64,000 nucleotides of DNA from Candidatus Methylomirabilota bacterium. GTDB lineage: Bacteria; Methylomirabilota; Methylomirabilia; Rokubacteriales; CSP1-6. The stretch covers positions 5,491 to 69,490 of the forward strand of contig JBKOVG010000150.1 in NCBI GenBank assembly GCA_046723845.1. Reading direction: 5' to 3'. Shown in pieces: positions 5,996 through 39,420 of the stretch. The translations under genes and the position numbers were made by a program. The notes beneath the pieces were generated by a model. That model searched no databases and was not told the DNA's origin. It was given only the letters and a program-made list of their open reading frames with translations. The stretch's first letter is position 1; every line of letters begins with the position of its first letter.

Positions 5996-7096
5996 CTACT
6001 GGGAGCGGCCGCGGCCCGCGATGTCCCAGATCGCTTCCACCTGCGGACCGCGCAACACGTAGATGCGATCGTAGAGATTAATGGTGGGATCGCAGTGCGG
6101 CGGGAAGAACTCGATGAGCTGGCCGAGGGCGGGCAGCCGTCCCGCCTCCGACACGGTGAGGCGCCCGTGCTCGTCGCCCGCCCAGGAGTAGGAGACGCCG
6201 GGGCACTCGAGCGGCTCGGGCACGAGCGGCTTGTCCGTGGAGAAGGCCTTGAGGCCGCCGTCGACCATGGCCATCTCCTTGCTCGGCACGCTGATGACGG
6301 TGGTGAGCACGGTGAGGGCCATCTCGAAGTCGTCGTAATCGCCGCCGCCCTTGCCCCCGATCCGACGGTAGTCGAGGTCCATCACGCAGTACGAGCCGCT
6401 CTGGAGCTCGGTGAGGCCCTTGAGCTCGGAGTCGATGTTGAAGGTGCCGGAGGAGCCGCCGCTCACGATCTCCACGGGGAGGCTGTTCTTCTCGAAGAGG
6501 TCCCGCGTCTTCATGAGGCGGTTCATCCACCGGTTCGAGGTGCGGCGCCGGTTGGCGTAGCCCGGCACGTGCGCGCAGTGCCCCGCGTAGCCCTGCAGGC
6601 CGCGCAGGTTGAGCGCACTCTCCAGCATGACCATGCGAGCGAGATGCACGGCAGGCTCGCCGGGCTGAGTCCCCGTGCGGCGCCCGCCCACGTCCACGTC
6701 GACGAGCACGTTGAGCACCTTGCCCGCGGCGGCCATGGCCTGCCCCAGCTCGCGCACGTTGTCCACGTTGTCCACCACTGCGAGGGTCTCCGGGGCCTGC
6801 TCGAGCACGCCGAGGAGACGGTGGATCTTCTCCGGCCCCACCACTTCCGTGGTGATGAGGATGTTGCGGATGCCCGCCGCCGCCATCACCTCGGCCTCCC
6901 CGACCTTGGCGCAGCAGATACCCACTGATCCCGCCGCGATCTGGCGTCGGGCGATCTCCGGGCACTTGTGGGTCTTGGAGTGAGGGCGGAGCTTCTTGCC
7001 GGCCGCCTTCACGTGGGCGGCCATTTTGGCGATGTTGCGCTCGAAGCGCTCGAGGTCGAGGAGGAGCGCGGGGGTGGGAATCTCGTTTCGCGTCAT
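5996..7096 (-). CDS. DSD1 family PLP-dependent enzyme (alanine-racemase-fold D-serine dehydratase / D-threonine aldolase-like)
   Basis: ATG at 7094-7096 (MTRNEIPTPALLLDLERFERNIAKMAAHVKAAGKKLRPHSKTHKCPEIA), with the PLP-lysine motif HSKTHK. The upstream in-frame extension is spurious. Confidence 0.75.
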   Translation of the reverse strand: MTRNEIPTPALLLDLERFERNIAKMAAHVKAAGKKLRPHSKTHKCPEIARRQIAAGSVGICCAKVGEAEVMAAAGIRNILITTEVVGPEKIHRLLGVLEQAPETLAVVDNVDNVRELGQAMAAAGKVLNVLVDVDVGGRRTGTQPGEPAVHLARMVMLESALNLRGLQGYAGHCAHVPGYANRRRTSNRWMNRLMKTRDLFEKNSLPVEIVSGGSSGTFNIDSELKGLTELQSGSYCVMDLDYRRIGGKGGGDYDDFEMALTVLTTVISVPSKEMAMVDGGLKAFSTDKPLVPEPLECPGVSYSWAGDEHGRLTVSEAGRLPALGQLIEFFPPHCDPTINLYDRIYVLRGPQVEAIWDIAGRGRSQ

Positions 7097-7424
7097 GGCG
7101 TGGCGAGCATACCACGGCTCGTTGCATGGGAGTCGCCAGAAGTGAGGCAACGTACTGATTTGACGGTGGTTCATCTCCCCTGGTGTGGCTGGGTGCTACG
7201 GGAATCTGCACGTTTCCGTGCTACGGGCGTGGCGTGTCAAGCGTGGAGCAGGGCGAGCATGTGCGTTTCGGGGCATGGAGATCGGCCCGTCCTGCCCCTG
7301 TGGATCGACTTCTGCCGGCACCTGCCAACTACGTGAGACGCAGGATTTCAGGCGCGGGGCTTGCAGCCCTACCTCTCATATGGGCACGGAGAACCAAAAA
7401 TGGACATCGAGCGTCACTCACGGT

Positions 7425-7801
7425 GGCAAGAACTGGGACACCAAGTCGGGGCACCCTCGCACGGTGCCGCTGACGCAGCGGGTGGGCGGAAGCGCCCCTT
7501 CACCGGGCTGCGCTACCGGGACGTGCGGAAGATCTGGTACCAGGCCTGAGACCACCTTGGCTTCGCCGACGACCCGCAGTGGGTCATCCACATGCTGCGC
7601 CACACCTGCCCCTCGCGCCTCGTACAGGGTGGCGCAGAGATCCAGTACGTCATGAAGTGGCTCGGCCACGCGACCATCAGCATCACGATGCGGTACGCGC
7701 ACCTAGCACCAAAGAGCCTCGACAAGCTCACGGCGATCCTCGACCAGCAGCCCGAGGAGAAGCCGCGCACGCTGGCCGTGGTCAAGGAGCAGAAGGGATG
7801 A
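7425..7801 (+). pseudogene. Tyrosine recombinase (phage integrase) C-terminal remnant with frameshifts and an internal stop. It marks the left end of a degraded integrative element.
   Basis: Three frames together give KSGHPRTVPLTQRV / FTGLRYRDVRKIWYQA* / HMLRHTCPSRLVQGGAEIQYVMKWLGHATISITMRYAHL. These are the catalytic box I, box II (HxLRHT) and LGH..TxxYxH tyrosine motifs of a tyrosine recombinase. No intact N-terminal domain is present. Confidence 0.7.
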
Positions 7802-7883
7802 GCGACACCCGAGTGTGGAAAGCCGCCCCGCCGTGCCCGCCTCTGACATCAGAGCGGGTGCTGGCGTGGCTGAGGAGTAAGTG

Positions 7884-8045
7884 ATGTTCTGGACCCGCAA
7901 GACGAGGGCAGACGGGCACTGCTACGCCTGCGCCGCCGAGGGGACGTGCGACTGCCGTGTCTGCGAGGAGAAGCGCGTCCTCGCCGCTCCGATTGTGGCG
8001 CAGGATGTGGCGCAGGCGCCACCAAGTAGCGCCACCGATCGCTAA
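7884..8045 (+). CDS. Small Cys-rich protein (53 aa), zinc-ribbon-like, in the integrative island
   Basis: ATG preceded by GAGGAG at a 5-nt spacing. Translation MFWTRKTRADGHCYACAAEGTCDCRVCEEKRVLAAPIVAQDVAQAPPSSATDR contains CxxC...CxCxxC. It falls below the 60-aa ORF-track cutoff. Confidence 0.35.
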   Translation: MFWTRKTRADGHCYACAAEGTCDCRVCEEKRVLAAPIVAQDVAQAPPSSATDR

Positions 8046-8196
8046 GATTCAACTACTTGCAGCACCGGAAGTCAGTGGAAGTGAAGTGGCATTCAAGATC
8101 CTCTCGCTGACACGATAGTCTCCCAGAACCGCGCCCTATCTGGTGAATCTGCCGGTGTGGGTGCGGTAGCGAGACCATCGTGTCACGGTATGTCAG

Positions 8197-8637
8197 TTGC
8201 CCCACTGCGCCGACGATCCTCCGTTCTGCTGGCCCGCCGTCCCTTGCGAAGGCCACGAACATCTCCCAGCCCGCCAGCTTCACGTAGCCATGCGTCCGCA
8301 CGATCTCCACCACGACTCCACCACCGATGCTCTTTGGAATCCAGATCAAGGCGGGGCGTTCTGTGGGAAGTGCGCGCTGCCCGCACCGTGGCTCTCGCGT
8401 GACACCCTCATGGACTGGCTCACGCATCAGGTGCAGGCCGACGAGAGCGTGTCCGATGTGAACCGGGTTGAACTCCGGGCGATCTTGGAGCGGCTCAAGG
8501 CGATGGACCCGGAGGACACGAAGGCTGTCTCAGCATGGCAGCGGTTTCAGGTACTCGCGCCGAAGGTGTGGGACGCCACGAAGCCGGTGCGCGATGCGCT
8601 GATCGGTGAAGCGGTGAGGTACGCGCTGGGCCTCTGA
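8197..8637 (+). CDS. Hypothetical protein (island cargo). Alternative start at 8410 (MDWLTHQ...).
   Basis: The C-terminal half (MDWLTHQVQADESVSDVNRVELRAILERLKAMDPEDTKAVSAWQRF...) has very high GC3. The N-terminal half has CPHC...CGKC spacing. An overlapping antisense ORF (8053-8427) cannot be excluded. Confidence 0.35.
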   Translation: MPHCADDPPFCWPAVPCEGHEHLPARQLHVAMRPHDLHHDSTTDALWNPDQGGAFCGKCALPAPWLSRDTLMDWLTHQVQADESVSDVNRVELRAILERLKAMDPEDTKAVSAWQRFQVLAPKVWDATKPVRDALIGEAVRYALGL

Positions 8638-8918
8638 CAGCCCCACTAGATCGACTACACCACTAGACGGAACCGCCCACCCGTCGTCTTGATGGTCACT
8701 ATCGTTCTCCTCTCAGCTTCTCGAAGATGGACTTCATGTGGGACCACCCTACGACCAGACGTCAGACCTCCAGCGATGCGTGCGGTAGCGCGATGATCGT
8801 GCTGGCGAACACGAGCGCATCGGTGGTGACTTGCGAGGGAGATCCTTCCGCGCTATCGGTTCTGCTTTCCTTCTTGACGAGGCAGCACGAAGTTCTCAGG
8901 GTGTGCTAGGCTCTCGCC

Positions 8919-9581
8919 GTGCTGAGGTATTACTGGCGTCTGCTGCGAGCGCTCCCGACGCTCCTCCGCACGTCAACATCTCGCGTCAACGGCACCGTGT
9001 TCCTCGGAGGCGCACTGCTGACCGCTGTTCTGCCCACGCTGACGGCGAGATGGTCGATCACGCAGGGGCCGACTGCCGACCGGGTGAAGGCGTTCGCCGC
9101 GAGCTTCCCGCTGTGGTGGCCGCTCGTACCGATCAGCCTGCTGGTCCTGCTAGGTCTCCTCAAGGCGAACTACGAGCTTCACGCGAAGGTCGAGCGCCAG
9201 CGTAACCGACTGCGGGCGAAGCTGGATGATCGCGTGAAGCGGCATCGGGATGCGGAGGAGCTTGGTCGCCTTCGCAAGACCATGAGGAAGCGGTACTACG
9301 AGTGGCTTGAGGAACAGAAGTCGCACATCCCCGGACCGGACCCAGCGAAAGACCGGGCGCTCGACTTGCAGAACCAGATCGCGGACCTGCTGGAGAGGCG
9401 GTACGGGTTCGACATCAGAGATCGGTTCCTCACTGCTGACGATGCCGACTCTCAGCATCCCTCTGCTTTGGTCACTGTTTTGGTCTTGACCCGTGAGTAC
9501 GCGGGTCGCACCAAGCGTCTGAGGGGGATCATCCGCGACATCCGATCCGGCAAGATCAGGCGCACGGTAGAGTGGGGATGA
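8919..9581 (+). CDS. Hypothetical membrane protein with two TM segments and a charged coiled-coil C-terminal domain (island cargo)
   Basis: GTG start. TM helices VFLGGALLTAVLPTL and LWWPLVPISLLVLLGLL, followed by an Arg/Lys/Glu-rich helical region. No recognisable family. Confidence 0.45.
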   Translation: MLRYYWRLLRALPTLLRTSTSRVNGTVFLGGALLTAVLPTLTARWSITQGPTADRVKAFAASFPLWWPLVPISLLVLLGLLKANYELHAKVERQRNRLRAKLDDRVKRHRDAEELGRLRKTMRKRYYEWLEEQKSHIPGPDPAKDRALDLQNQIADLLERRYGFDIRDRFLTADDADSQHPSALVTVLVLTREYAGRTKRLRGIIRDIRSGKIRRTVEWG

Positions 9582-10228
9582 AGAGAAGTGTCTTGCCCGC
9601 GCTACGAACAGGAGCGGATCGGTGAGGACTTCGAGGGGAGATGGTTCCGCTATCGCGAGGAAGAATCAGGTTGACGTGTTCTGCTGCGTCGGCCCTGTCT
9701 TGGACTCGCATTCCTTCTCCTAGATCTTCCGGTCGAGGGTCGCGCGCACTGCACCGATCTGTTCCTCAATGGCGCGACGCCCGCCTTCAAGATGGAGAAG
9801 GTCCGGTGGGCGAGGAGATGACGGGCATGGCTGAGTTGAGCATCGAGGCGCCCGCGCTCAGCTTCAAGCTCAACGATGATGTGGCGGATGTCGGAGATGG
9901 TGAGCGTGGAGAAGCTGGGGCGGTGGTCCGGGTGATGTGCTGGCGTGGTGCGCTCCTCTCAGGTTGACTGCAGTGGACGGCCAGCGTAGCAGGGAGCGCA
10001 CGGCTGAGACCATCGGGAGAATCGCTCACGTAGTTCTACGCTCGCGGAGGAGGCCGATGGCTCCTAGCGACAGGGACGATCACGCAGGTGAGAAGGCGAT
10101 GGAGGCCCTCATGTCGTATCCCCTTGTGGACTGCTCGGGTCTTCTGCTACCGTCGAGATGCCAGTCGGAGATGAAGCGCAGTCAGATCGGGACGTTGCCA
10201 CACGCGACTCTACTCGCCGTCATGTTGT

Positions 10229-10855
10229 ATGATCGCCGCCATGACCACAACGAGCCTCGTGCATCCAGGTGAAGTCGACTGGTCCGGGGAGAACCCCGGC
10301 ATGTACCTGAAAGAGAAGGCGGACGGCCCCTTCGTCACCCTCGTGTCCTTCTTCCGCGTGGTCGCCTCGCCCTACGGACGCGGTCATGCCCTCGTCCTCC
10401 TCGAAGCGCCCCTCCTCCATCGCAGTCTGCCCGAGGCGCTGAACGTCTGCGTCACCGACAACGACCCCCTCGCCCGCTATCTGGTGAGCAACTTCGTCAC
10501 CTATTTCGGCGCCTTCAAGGGCACCGAGGCCCTGCCGTACATGGACTACATCCCGCTCGAAGGCGTGGCCGCCTCCGGCGACACGCGCGCCAGCTACATG
10601 GAGTGGGTCAAGGGGCCCGCGGTGGAGGTGACGCTGTCCTGGGAGGATCTCGGCGAGCCGTTCATGGTGAACATTCCCAAGGAGCAGTCCGCCACGGGCA
10701 AGCACGCGCTTCACAGCCTTTTCGTCGATGCCCGCCGCGTCATCGCCACCGTGAACGACCGCCCCCTCAAGGGCCAGCCGGTGCCTCGCGAGTTCGCGGG
10801 ACGGCAGAGCAGCACCGCCTTCCTCGCCTACTCGGAGACGTGGATCAAGATGTAG
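10229..10855 (+). CDS. Hypothetical protein (alternative start ATG 10241). GC returns to ~70% at this gene.
   Basis: High-GC3 coding pattern throughout. A TATGAT -10-like hexamer (10228-10233) overlaps the first ATG. Confidence 0.5.
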   Translation: MIAAMTTTSLVHPGEVDWSGENPGMYLKEKADGPFVTLVSFFRVVASPYGRGHALVLLEAPLLHRSLPEALNVCVTDNDPLARYLVSNFVTYFGAFKGTEALPYMDYIPLEGVAASGDTRASYMEWVKGPAVEVTLSWEDLGEPFMVNIPKEQSATGKHALHSLFVDARRVIATVNDRPLKGQPVPREFAGRQSSTAFLAYSETWIKM

Positions 10856-11699
10856 CTGCGGGTTCCTTGATGGACACCCGCCAGTGGATGCGGTCTTCCT
10901 CGGGCGGGTAGTCCCCCGCCGCCTTGTGGTAGGAGCAGCGGTTGTCCCAGATCACGATGTCGCCGCGGCGCCAGCGGTGGCGGTACTCGCCCTCGGGCTG
11001 GATCATCCACTCCGTCAGCTCCTCGATGAGCTCGTCGCTCTCTCGCGCCTCTAGTCCCTCGATGCGGAGGATCTTGCCTGGATCGAAGTAGAGGCCCTTG
11101 CGTCCCGTCTCGGGATGCACGCGGATGATGGGATGGAAGACAGGCGTCCAGTCGCGGTCGGCCTCGTCGAGGAGCGCGGTGGCCTTGCGGCGGCCGCCGT
11201 AGGTGAAGGCGCCCAACCGCCCCTCGAGCCGCGCGCGCAGCGGCGCGGGGAGCGCGTCGTACGCCGCGTACATGCTCGCGAAGAAGGTGTCCCCGCCCCG
11301 GCTCGGCACGGCGAGGGCATAGAGCTGGGTCGCCTTGAAAGGCTCGGCATCGTAGGCGCCGTCGGTGTGCCAGCCCTCCGCGCCGCGCCGGTAGATCGCC
11401 ATGTCGAGCTGGCCGTCCGGCCCGAACTTGTTCACGCCGAGCAGGGTGATCTCGGGATATTCCGGATGCCGCGTGGACTTGGAGGGATGGGGGACGACCA
11501 CGCCGAAGCGGCGGCTGTAGACGAGGAAGTCCTCGATCTCAAGCTGCTGCTCGGGCACCACCAGCACGTTGTGGGCGAGCCACGCGCGGTAGATCTCCGC
11601 GAAGCCCGCGTCGTCGAGGGTTTTCACGTCGACCCCGCGGATCTCCGCGCCGATCTGCGGCCCGAGCTGTCGCACCTCGATCGTGGTTGGCACGGGCAC
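10845..11699 (-). CDS. TauD/TfdA family Fe(II)/2-oxoglutarate-dependent dioxygenase
   Basis: HTDGAYDAEP...WDNRCSYHKA, the His-x-Asp...His facial triad pattern of taurine-dioxygenase-like enzymes. Confidence 0.8.
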   Translation of the reverse strand: MPVPTTIEVRQLGPQIGAEIRGVDVKTLDDAGFAEIYRAWLAHNVLVVPEQQLEIEDFLVYSRRFGVVVPHPSKSTRHPEYPEITLLGVNKFGPDGQLDMAIYRRGAEGWHTDGAYDAEPFKATQLYALAVPSRGGDTFFASMYAAYDALPAPLRARLEGRLGAFTYGGRRKATALLDEADRDWTPVFHPIIRVHPETGRKGLYFDPGKILRIEGLEARESDELIEELTEWMIQPEGEYRHRWRRGDIVIWDNRCSYHKAAGDYPPEEDRIHWRVSIKEPAATS

Positions 11700-11734
11700 A
11701 TCCTAGCCCCGGCTCCCCGCGAGGTAAAGGACCG

Positions 11735-12067
11735 TCAGCGCGGGGCGCGGAAGGGGTCGATCACATTGCGGGGGATGCGGGAGGCGCTGTTGTCGTAGCG
11801 GTTGTGGGAAAGACTGCCGCAGAAGGTGATGGACCCGACCGCGAAGACCGCCCCGCCGCCCGGCAGCTCCGCGTAGGTCATGTCCGCGCGTATCATGCGC
11901 GACGGCCGCTCGCCGGTGGCGGAGGTGAGGTGGCTCAAGAGCTCCTCGAAGACCACCACGAAGCTCGGGCCGTGCCCTTCCGAGCGGGCGATCACGATGG
12001 CGCCGGACGGCGTTTCCAGCGCGGCGTCCGCGCGGTCGAGCGCCGTGTACCCGGTGAGCGGGATCAC
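11735..12067 (-). CDS. Hypothetical protein (110 aa)
   Basis: Co-directional and downstream of the TPM genes. Non-repetitive sequence (…GGGAVFAVGSITFCGSLSHNRYDN…). No family assignment. Confidence 0.35.
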   Translation of the reverse strand: MIPLTGYTALDRADAALETPSGAIVIARSEGHGPSFVVVFEELLSHLTSATGERPSRMIRADMTYAELPGGGAVFAVGSITFCGSLSHNRYDNSASRIPRNVIDPFRAPR

Positions 12068-37188: not shown

Positions 37189-37916
37189 TCAGCGGGCGGG
37201 CACGACGCCGAGCGCCGCGAGCTGGCACCGGAGATCGTCGCCCTTGTCGACGCGGAAGAGCACGCCCTGCATTCCCACCTGGCGCGCCGCCTCCACGTTG
37301 GTGTCGAGATCGTCCACGAACACGCACTCATGGGGCGACAGGCCCAGACGCTGCGCGGCCAGGATGAAGATGCCCGCCTCGGGCTTGGCCATCCCCACCT
37401 CCGCCGAGCAGACGATGTCGTCGAAGAGGTGATGGAGAGCGAGCTCGCCCTCGAGCCGGTCACGCAGGGAGAGGTCGGCGTTGCTCAGGATGGCGAGCTT
37501 GTAGGGCGGGCGAAGCTCACGCACCAGGGCGAGGTTCGGCGTGATGGCGCACTGCGAGGCGCGCCACTCCTCGTGGAGCGGAGGGAGCGGACGGCCCGCG
37601 CGCTCCTCGAGGGACCGGTGGGCGGCCTTCTGCCAGGCCAGCCGGTCGCCGCGGCCGCGCTCGATGTCTCTCCAGGTGTCCGTGCGGTACAGGGTCTCGA
37701 AGACGGAGAGCCGAGGCAGACCATGCGTGCGGTCGAGCTCGCGCGCGACGTCCCAGCGCATGTCCCAGAGCACCCCGCCGAAGTCGAAGATGACGCCGCG
37801 CAGACTAGCCTCTTGCCGGAGGGGGCTAGTGTGTTGACTATCCTCGGTTACGTGGCGGGTTGGAGAGCACTTGCCCCTCAGCTCAGGAACTCGTCGCGAC
37901 CAAAACCTGCAGCACA
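37189..37916 (-). CDS. HAD family hydrolase. The start is uncertain: there is an unusually long N-terminal region before motif I.
   Basis: Motif I IFDFGGVLWD and C-terminal motifs …ILSNAD…VFVDDLDTNVEAARQVGMQG. The only ATG upstream of motif I (37914-37916) leaves ~40 aa before it. The 5' end sits at the edge of the low-GC insertion. Confidence 0.55.
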
Positions 37917-38003
37917 TGGGAAGCCGCGCACGCTCTCCAACAATTCCCCCGATAAAACCGTGGCAGCCGATGAACCGCTCTCTCAAGTCTCATAACGGCT
38001 TCT

Positions 38004-39131
38004 CTATCGTGCGAGTTGTTTACGAATAACCGGACCTATTTTGTTAGCTAAAGCAACGGGCATCCACCGTGTCCACATATTCGAGAATTGCGACATCATT
38101 GACGAGGACGAATCAAATGTGCGCAGTGCGTCCTGCTGCTTCGACATCAGGTAATAATGAGAATGGGGAATGAACGTACATCCCCATTTTCTTTTGAAGT
38201 GCTCCTGACCGTCGTACCGTACGGAGCCGAAATCAAAGAAGGAATAACCATTCTCGGCTGCAAATCGGATAAATTCCCAATGGATCAGATCATTCGGTCT
38301 CAAATTCCAATATGCGGGATCTGAAACGATGTTGATGATGCTGATCCTGCGGCCACACGCAAAACCCAGCAGACCCGCCACCTTGATGGAATCCTTCATG
38401 GCCCAGAAAATCTTCATCTTATCGCCGAATGCTTTATAGCAGTCCAGGTAGTACCGCAGATTATGCGGAGGCACGCCGAGGCGCTTCATCGATTCGCAAT
38501 ACAGCGAGAAGAAAGGCCCGCGTAGCGTCGCCTCGTTGCATTCTTCTTTTACGGCTAGACCGGAGTTTCTTGCCTTGTTGACGGCCTTCCGGGCTTCATA
38601 ACTGATTTTTCGCCGCCAGATCTCATCAACGTTTGAAGCCAACTCCAGGTAAGCTAGTAAATGCGGATGTCGGCCAGCGAATAGCTCTTCGTTGAGACTC
38701 GACGGGATTCCGTGGTTGCCATTGATCTCCAGCGTCACGTCTTTAAATTTCTTTGCGATGTGCGCGCGCAGAGAGCCCACGATTTCTCTGATTTCATCGA
38801 GATCCAACTCGGCCGCGACCAGCAGTCCGCCATACTCAGAAAATGGCTGGCTGATCAATTTGCGGCCGAACAAAAGGCTCCGGGTGAGTGCCATCGGAAC
38901 CACCGCAACGATCTCGCTGCCTTTGACGAAACAAATGCGTTGCGAGCGGAAGCCATAACACTCCGTCGCCATCCCGTAGTTGTACAGGTGCGCAAACCTG
39001 CCCTCGACGTTGCTCTCGACGAACGCGTCCCAGGTTCCTTGATCCTGCCAATCGTCTCTTATCCGAGGCAACTCCCTCTGCGAAGAGTGGACCCTCCCAG
39101 CACCGTTAGGTGACGTTGCTTCCATAAACAA
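38004..39131 (-). CDS. FemAB-family / CelD-like GNAT-fold acyltransferase (similar to PEP-CTERM/exosortase-associated FemAB proteins) on a low-GC insertion
   Basis: 375 aa at roughly 48-50% GC in a ~70% GC context. The FemAB-like two-lobed acyltransferase signature is spread along its length (…YNYGMATECYGF…FEYGGLL…LRYYLDCYKAFGDKMKIFWA…FDFGSVRYDGQEHFKRKWG…). Confidence 0.6.
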   Translation of the reverse strand: MFMEATSPNGAGRVHSSQRELPRIRDDWQDQGTWDAFVESNVEGRFAHLYNYGMATECYGFRSQRICFVKGSEIVAVVPMALTRSLLFGRKLISQPFSEYGGLLVAAELDLDEIREIVGSLRAHIAKKFKDVTLEINGNHGIPSSLNEELFAGRHPHLLAYLELASNVDEIWRRKISYEARKAVNKARNSGLAVKEECNEATLRGPFFSLYCESMKRLGVPPHNLRYYLDCYKAFGDKMKIFWAMKDSIKVAGLLGFACGRRISIINIVSDPAYWNLRPNDLIHWEFIRFAAENGYSFFDFGSVRYDGQEHFKRKWGCTFIPHSHYYLMSKQQDALRTFDSSSSMMSQFSNMWTRWMPVALANKIGPVIRKQLAR

Positions 39132-39135
39132 ATTC

Positions 39136-39420
39136 CTAGTACTTGCCCTTGGTCTTTCCCGCCGTGGACGGATCGGGCGCCTTCACCGGCGGCCCGATGT
39201 CTCCGCCGAGGGCAACCCACCCGCGGTCCTTCATGCAGTCTTCGTCGAGGACCTTGGTCTTCTTGTCGGTACAGGCGGTGCGATCACGCTCGAAGTCGGC
39301 GGTGGTGTAGTTCACGTTGGGCTTGTACCACTGCCTGTCGGGCGGCCCTTCCGAGCAGCCGGTGGCGAGGACGAGGAGTCCGATGGGGAGGAGCGCAATC
39401 AGTCCCTTCATGAAGCGCAT
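39136..39420 (-). CDS. Small lipoprotein (94 aa)
   Basis: MRFMKGLIALLPIGLLVLATGCSEGPP: a canonical signal peptide with lipobox LATGC. Confidence 0.7.
   Translation of the reverse strand: MRFMKGLIALLPIGLLVLATGCSEGPPDRQWYKPNVNYTTADFERDRTACTDKKTKVLDEDCMKDRGWVALGGDIGPPVKAPDPSTAGKTKGKY

Follow-up and report, generated by a model that had tools for sequence, protein, structure and literature searches.

Imperfect terminal inverted repeats (TIRs) have been documented in several mobile elements that depend on tyrosine recombinases, measuring 13-19 bp in SEs and 34 bp in RITs and being found also in Tn554, and all three carry two or three tandem recombinase genes with conserved partner genes (PMC10214605). 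A second group with which the present locus can be compared is that of the non-autonomous TIR-bounded derivatives, such as cargo derived from insertion sequences (IS) and elements resembling miniature inverted-repeat transposable elements. The locus in question is an insertion of ~3.1 kb (positions 7129-10223) that separates two divergently oriented genes in the genome of a soil member of the Rokubacteria, in a 64-kb stretch of DNA that was analysed at its full length and is called here the window. As in the non-autonomous derivatives, the insert has imperfect TIRs, an 8-bp repeat, no transposase of its own and an intergenic insertion site, but no parent element, second copy or transposase remnant was found for it, no IS or transposon family can be assigned, its right inverted repeat is set back by 13 nt and it carries a tyrosine-recombinase fragment. 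With integrase islets and with SE, RIT, GInt and Tn554 elements (PMC10214605) it shares a recombinase near one end, imperfect TIRs, a short junction repeat and cargo; its recombinase, however, is single, 5'-truncated and mutated, it has no tRNA target, and the truncated gene occurs elsewhere without these ends. The reading that we place first, and hold with about even confidence, is that a small mobile element, transposon-like and non-autonomous, inserted here and has left 7129-10223 as its dead remnant.

The flanks define the insertion precisely. The left flanking gene (5996-7099, minus strand, ATG at 7099) is D-serine-dehydratase-like, with Ala_racemase_N and D-ser_dehydrat domains, and assigns the DNA to a Rokubacteria / Candidatus Methylomirabilota lineage; the right one (10241-10855, ATG at 10241) encodes a conserved protein of 204 aa. 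Both adjoin head to head in nine related Rokubacteria (Methylomirabilota) contigs (L001, L002, L003, L005, L020, L022, L023, L024 and L030), at 70-89% protein identity, and a three-way junction alignment showed that the empty site is a divergent intergenic region of 43 bp. Because the flanking genes are adjacent in these nine relatives, 7129-10223 is a true insertion into the 43-bp region. The comparison with syntenic genomes, proposed in an earlier note made from the letters of this DNA, thus found the insert absent at the site in all nine, and its presence is lineage-specific in the sense used for genomic islands. By blastn, window positions 6000-7127 aligned to 6620-5493 of L001 and positions 10224-10849 to 5499-4874; 7 bp of L001 aligned to both window flanks, and ~3.1 kb are extra in the window. 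This overlap and the junction alignment delimit a direct repeat of 8 bp, with a left copy GTTGCATG (7121-7128) and a right copy GTTGTATG (10224-10231), which is a candidate target-site duplication. Seven of its eight positions are identical, the fifth being T in the right copy and in the relatives.

Inside the direct repeats lie imperfect TIRs, the left one at 7130-7183 (plus strand) and the right one at 10161-10210 (minus strand). Within 6900-10500, no inverted repeat is longer than the one formed by 7142-7178 and 10167-10203 (37 nt, 81% complementary), and by allowing one 5-nt gap the pairing reaches the full ~50 nt. Its local-alignment score of 24 compares with 10.0 ± 2.1 (z ~6.6) for a null in which 100-nt segments of the window were paired at random, and was reached by 2 of 4974 such pairs. 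The left TIR begins 1 nt within the insert and the right one ends 13 nt before the junction, leaving 13 bases (10211-10223) between it and the direct repeat. The earlier note had seen no direct-repeat att site by eye, an impression that these two kinds of repeat overturn; it had also reported no tRNA at the edges, and here it was right, given that no tRNA or tmRNA was detected in the whole 64 kb. No Rfam match was obtained either, even at E<=1. The left TIR forms part of a non-coding left-end segment (7129-7325) that also contains two exact copies of GTGCTACGGG (7193-7202 and 7218-7227), a motif whose count across the window is not above chance; the segment has no codon-position GC signal and no homologue in the 93 loci fetched for comparison (~1.27 Mb, mostly Rokubacteria).

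The insert is compositionally foreign. Its GC content is 62.9% (7200-10240) against 69.6% in the rest of the window, which bears out the dip noticed earlier at 7.2-10.2 kb, and the largest tetranucleotide distance in the 64 kb was obtained for 3-kb windows over 7.0-10.5 kb (z 3.6-4.0, strand-symmetric). GC at third codon positions is 0.89-0.93 in the host genes on either side and 0.78-0.89 in the open reading frames (ORFs) of the insert. About 40% of the insert lacks codon periodicity, with ~60% GC at all three positions, and the GC drop is partly due to this loss of coding structure.

A second assembly holds the same insertion. JGI contig L081 (sample 3300078327), located through P0001, a 99%-identical copy of a DUF2321-related ORF of the insert, is 99.8% identical to window positions 6210-11800 (5591 bp, ungapped, 11 mismatches), and its junctions, frameshifts and stop are those of the window. 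Because this independent contig is gapless and nearly identical, the lesions described below are real and not sequencing errors; a corrected sequence revealing an intact integrase, which the earlier note had considered, did not emerge, L081 having the same broken recombinase. Nine of the 11 mismatches fall inside the insert, as might be expected under relaxed constraint, although the excess does not reach significance (Fisher p=0.13).

The content of the insert is a patchwork of modules, each of which is also found on its own elsewhere in soil metagenomes. Neither an intact recombinase nor a detectable transposase is encoded; in the frames and ORFs that were scanned with Pfam and NCBIfam, no transposase domain or remnant was found. 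If the insert is the remnant of a non-autonomous transposon-like element, the whole patchwork would have moved once, as one unit, by means of a transposase or recombinase that was supplied in trans, recognised the inverted ends and cut with an 8-bp stagger. In that case the fragment of recombinase would be passenger debris, truncated beforehand, and the element would have evolved near-neutrally since its insertion. Function might survive in the 220-aa membrane-anchored helical protein and perhaps in the DUF2321 domain at the C-terminus, but nowhere else.

Several observations weigh against this reading. Of what is expected of an IS or DDE transposon, the insert has the terminal inverted repeats, but neither a transposase gene or its remnant nor multiple copies, the TIR pattern being confined, in the sequences searched, to this one locus (the window and L081). 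There is no second copy of the TIR core elsewhere in the window, and the core is absent from the 93 fetched loci except L081, which carries the same insertion. Pattern scans of the JGI metagenome collection and of IMG/VR gave 0 matches, the former being a weak negative, since that collection does not include the window's own population. Without a second TIR copy, repeated mobility is conjectural and a transposon family cannot be named. In addition, the right inverted repeat is set back from its junction by 13 nt in comparison with the left one, and the 8-bp direct repeat, of which a single insertion is at hand, has one mismatch and might just as well be a crossover core used by a site-specific recombinase. 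A Tn3-family derivative was also considered, prompted by a weak NCBIfam match to a Tn3 transposase (E=0.069) and by an apparent likeness of the left end to Tn3-type inverted repeats. It was rejected: the matching ORF is a DUF2321 homologue, no fitting 5-bp duplication exists and no TnpA remnant was found.

The main alternative, which we regard as a tentative possibility, is a classical small integrase-mediated islet. In this case a full-length recombinase of ~295 aa at the left end would have integrated a circular element at an 8-bp core GTTGYATG, so that the repeats would be attL and attR, and a later internal deletion together with point lesions would have ruined the integrase; the inverted repeats would be binding sites for the recombinase or for accessory proteins, as at the ends of Tn916, Tn554, SEs and RITs. 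Overlap regions of tyrosine recombinases are 6-8 bp long, a range that the 8-bp repeat fits; flanking direct repeats as at an att core are present, yet they are indistinguishable from a target-site duplication. The existence of tyrosine-recombinase elements with imperfect TIRs (PMC10214605) favours the islet as well, as does the recombinase remnant itself, which is directed into the insert, at ~200 bp from its left end.

This remnant is a 5'-truncated tyrosine-recombinase pseudogene (7326-7801, plus strand) that covers the C-terminal ~146 codons. The boxes RTVPL, HMLRHT and LGH..Y are directly legible, and the frame-corrected concatenation matched Pfam PF00589 with E=5e-13 (49.5 bits, the cut-off being 27.1) over positions 106-170 of the 172 in the profile, and the PHROG integrase phrog_1 with E=3e-20; in NCBIfam it came nearest to XerC/XerD, whose cut-offs it missed by a wide margin (23 bits, with 265 required). 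Contig L083, a 3.3-kb soil contig, carries P0020 (146 aa), an uninterrupted copy of the truncated fragment with 84% identity. Alignment with L083 shows three lesions in the window copy: one base has been gained at ~7392 (+1) and one lost between 7498 and 7499 (-1), these two frameshifts compensating each other, and at 7547-7549 CGA has become an in-frame TGA stop. A complete catalytic set of Arg I, Lys, His-x-x-Arg, His/Trp and Tyr in one ORF is not present: the Arg I region is absent, and two frameshifts and one stop interrupt the rest. The earlier description of an integrase C-terminus broken across three frames with an internal stop was accurate as to pseudogene, boxes and stop, whereas L083 reduces the three frames to two. 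The nearest annotated relatives of the intact cousin P0021 are stand-alone recombinases of 294 aa, encoded on rhizobial replicons beside accessory genes, which again speaks for an islet; since these relatives have 294 aa, about half of the gene (the N-terminal half of ~295 aa) is missing here. XerC/XerD-like recombinases of this size, e.g., WP_328717301.1 of an Ensifer adhaerens plasmid, are 45-48% identical to P0021 in the catalytic domain. The window fragment shares with them Box II HxLRH, LGH and the tyrosine, but consists of the C-terminal half only, with the box I arginine region absent and the frame broken.

The truncation itself argues against an islet. Homology to L083 starts sharply at 7326, a common 5' truncation point, and the upstream DNA of L083, which holds a coiled-coil gene and another recombinase gene, full-length with 327 aa, is unrelated to the window. 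The shared truncation point in another context means that the truncated fragment travels as such and suggests that the recombinase gene was already dead when the copies diverged; for the same reason, the fragment is more likely passenger debris than the inserting enzyme. Moreover, the sequences adjoining the repeats, GGAGTCGCC and the reverse complement ATGACGGCG, are by eye not mutually inverted, unlike expected core-type sites, and no tRNA target exists. The insert also has neither a tRNA/tmRNA neighbour nor an intact integrase at its edge, two further marks of genomic islands. Against SE, RIT and Tn554 elements in particular, which have two or three tandem recombinase genes between inverted repeats, stands the single fragment found here. 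The claim of the earlier note that the region is the remnant of an integrative element with an integrase pseudogene holds as far as a decayed mobile insertion is concerned, but not as to tRNA-linked att ends, in whose place TIRs and an 8-bp repeat were found.

Two observations on the L083 locus may be added. The first ~290 nt of the shared module (window 7326-7610, L083 1974-2258) are ~98% identical, and the rest of it ~80%; this suggests either a recent recombination or conversion tract, or constraint at the nucleotide level, and the ~98%-identical stretch contains a GGGGCTTGCAGCCC hairpin. Recombinase genes pile up at this locus, the full-length 327-aa tyrosine recombinase (20-1003) being followed 1 kb downstream by the open, truncated 146-aa fragment (2009-2449).

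A one-off illegitimate event, in which microhomology at GTTGYATG mediated the capture of decayed foreign DNA and the TIR is coincidental or internal to the donor, seems to us rather improbable. It would account for the lack of any other copy of the ends in the searched collections, for a content that is a patchwork of broken genes, and for the imperfection of the repeat, beyond which a partial similarity to the target is visible by eye (GAGTCGCC versus GATCGCC). However, an inverted repeat of such quality is rare, as the 2 of 4974 random pairs indicate, and its position at both ends of the insert is unexpected for a random fragment. More ambitious, and in our view a long shot, is the idea that the inverted ends and the 8-bp duplication signal an undescribed family of cargo transposons in Rokubacteria/Methylomirabilota, perhaps moved by a single small XerC/D-like tyrosine recombinase, with the widely dispersed 220-aa family as a recurrent passenger with a selectable function. 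If this were true, one single enzyme would do the work in the manner of SE, RIT or Tn554, and the function of the passenger might be, e.g., phage exclusion.

We consider it highly improbable that the insert is an array of integron-like cassettes, or a group of attC sites lacking an integron integrase (CALIN), with the co-oriented small ORFs as cassettes. Several short co-oriented ORFs do lie downstream of a tyrosine recombinase, the modules are each found separately in other contexts, NCBIfam gave a weak integron-integrase match (E=3.5e-5), and there is one imperfect hairpin (8085-8200, z=-2.9). Nevertheless, the XerC/XerD models outscore the integron integrase, all of them remaining far below their cut-offs; a short-range inverted-repeat search found no attC-like imperfect palindromes after the DUF2321 or 220-aa ORFs; and the hairpin has no RYYYAAC/GTTRRRY ends and is not conserved in L083. 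Finally, a chimera produced by assembly or binning, or an intact element misread in sequencing, can be practically dismissed, for although the genome comes from an uncultured lineage whose closest relatives are all metagenome-assembled genomes, the independent contig L081 with its identical junctions, frameshifts and stop effectively refutes this explanation.

As an ordinary genomic scar, the insertion implies no new mechanism unless further TIR-bounded copies appear, its transposon-like ends being the surprise. Its value lies in offering a clean and well-delimited example of how soil Rokubacteria genomes gain and then erode mobile DNA, with exact junctions, an empty site and a second assembly. 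It illustrates that an insertion can land in a 43-bp divergent promoter region without the loss of either flanking gene, and it flags DUF2321 and the 220-aa helical family with two transmembrane (TM) segments as mobile accessory genes.

Among the cargo, the module with the only intact gene (8783-9581, plus strand) consists of the 220-aa ORF (8919-9581) and 136 bp of conserved upstream DNA. In line with the two TM segments of the earlier note, residues 25-43 and 60-82 of the protein are hydrophobic; its C-terminal part is helical and highly charged, and its AlphaFold2 (AF2) model is confident and all-helical (pLDDT 83.9). Thirty-eight representative relatives were found among 1.8 billion proteins, several of them full length, with 29-78% identity, and dN/dS of the gene is 0.34 and 0.21 relative to two of them; the protein belongs to a small uncharacterised family, and these ratios indicate purifying selection. 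Nucleotide homology to contigs L086, L087 and L088 is confined to 8783-9568, ending at the module edges, and the relatives are in unrelated contexts. The protein had no match in Pfam, NCBIfam, PHROG or PADLOC, and a profile search of PDB sequences was negative. The earlier note had suggested that a defence or toxin module might be present; no signature of one was found, the best PADLOC match among the insert proteins being non-significant coiled-coil noise (E=0.07) and Foldseek searches of the PDB with the AF2 models of this protein and of a DUF2321 relative returning nothing below E=0.6. A phage origin of the DUF2321 ORF and of the 220-aa gene was likewise rejected, neither the DUF2321 family nor the 220-aa protein having a relative in IMG/VR.

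The second recognisable module is a degenerate DUF2321-family ORF of 146 aa (8197-8637, plus strand), in which a C-terminal helical domain (8341-8637) is conserved. It has 19 homologues, mostly of 146-169 aa, with E values down to 8e-41 when the near-identical L081 copy is left aside, and from about 'GGAFCGKC' onwards it is 49-77% identical to 18 metagenomic proteins. PF10083 (DUF2321) is matched by seven of the ten aligned family members (28.8 bits for P0003 against a cut-off of 24); the window ORF itself gave no PF10083 match at E<=1 and stays below the Pfam gathering score, but its C-terminal ~100 residues share the FCxxC...PWLxR...PKVW..TKPVR motifs with the proteins that pass the threshold. 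The N-terminal half of the family is a CPxxGH...C..HG...C..C zinc ribbon, which in the window is degenerate or replaced, with most of the conserved cysteines lost. These results correct the earlier note, according to which no cargo belonged to a known family: one ORF is a degenerate DUF2321 homologue, and the 220-aa protein has 38 relatives. They also qualify its description of a 146-aa protein with a CPHC...CGKC N-terminus, in that the ORF exists but only its C-terminal ~100 aa are conserved and CPHC lies upstream of anything in the family.

For the C-terminal part of the DUF2321 ORF, dN/dS is ~0.2. The likewise confident AF2 model of a full-length relative (pLDDT 87.2) predicts a zinc ribbon and a helical bundle, and neither Foldseek with this model nor a profile search of PDB sequences retrieved a PDB neighbour; a literature search on DUF2321 returned nothing relevant. 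A minus-strand gene at 8053-8427 was considered, since codon-position GC slightly favours the minus strand there, but it has no family or homologue and is probably not a gene; alignment of the plus strand over this region suggested a degenerate DUF2321 N-terminus. Relatives of the ORF are found in variable regions beside genes for integrases, DUF3800, ThiF/Multi_ubiq, ImmA-type peptidases and response regulators, and what contigs L082 and L085 have in common with the insert is limited to the C-terminal part of DUF2321. DUF2321 genes recur beside stand-alone response-regulator genes and integrase genes or fragments (L082 6001-7099, L085 4824-6441, L095 684-2022). In L082, the DUF2321 gene is followed, at 8 bp, by a gene for a 205-aa protein with three TM segments that is unrelated in sequence to the 220-aa protein of the window. 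Such pairs of a zinc-ribbon and a membrane protein may be recurrent.

Further to the left, a Cys-rich ORF of 53 aa (7884-8045, plus strand) was found as claimed earlier, with its GAGGAG Shine-Dalgarno sequence at 7872-7877, and codon-position GC supports its frame. Its homologue on L083 (2523-2816) has 97 aa, so that the window ORF is an in-frame 38-codon deletion derivative; no family match was obtained in Pfam, NCBIfam, PHROG or PADLOC. The homology to L083 is limited to 7326-8133 of the insert. The imperfect hairpin of ~100 nt mentioned above (8085-8200), between the 53-aa and DUF2321 ORFs, straddles the end of this homology at ~8133. As single-stranded DNA it folds with -23 kcal/mol, one of 200 shuffles being as good, and the L083 counterpart has no significant fold.

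To the right of the 220-aa module, 9582-10160 is a non-coding or decayed stretch with weak minus-strand codon periodicity (9650-9900) and coiled-coil-like fragments in two frames. Over 9582-10223 (~640 bp) there is no substantial ORF, no Pfam domain in any frame and no Rfam match, in agreement with the earlier view that 9.6-10.2 kb holds no convincing ORF. The minus-strand coiled-coil fragments (9650-9960) were examined as a possible gene and discarded, as they gave only low-complexity Pfam noise.

The insertion left 28 bp upstream of the ATG of the left gene and 17 bp upstream of that of the right gene. The upstream promoter DNA of both must have been replaced, and their drivers must lie partly in the ends of the element. 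A promoter and terminator scan of the insert gave nothing, with no sigma-70-like sites, promoters of Rokubacteria being uncharacterised. The left TIR contributes an ATG (7174) that is in frame with the D-serine-dehydratase-like ORF and lengthens it by 25 codons past the conserved start at 7099, and ORF callers will give the left gene a chimeric N-terminus (392 aa versus ~367).

The region to the right of the insert is variable as well (10845-12067). Contigs L002 and L030 lack the TauD dioxygenase gene and the next gene, of 110 aa; there, the homologue of o208 lies directly beside a TPM-phosphatase-like gene, and in L001 ~4 kb of other DNA separates o208 from TauD. Given this variability, the insertion sits within a plasticity zone. 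Another dip in GC, deeper than that of the insert, was observed at 37900-39200 (48-55% GC against ~70%). It contains a single gene of 375 aa (38004-39131, minus strand) of the FemAB / Acetyltransf_6 (GNAT) type (PF13480, E=1.6e-15; PF02388, E=1e-12), and looks like a single-gene foreign islet.

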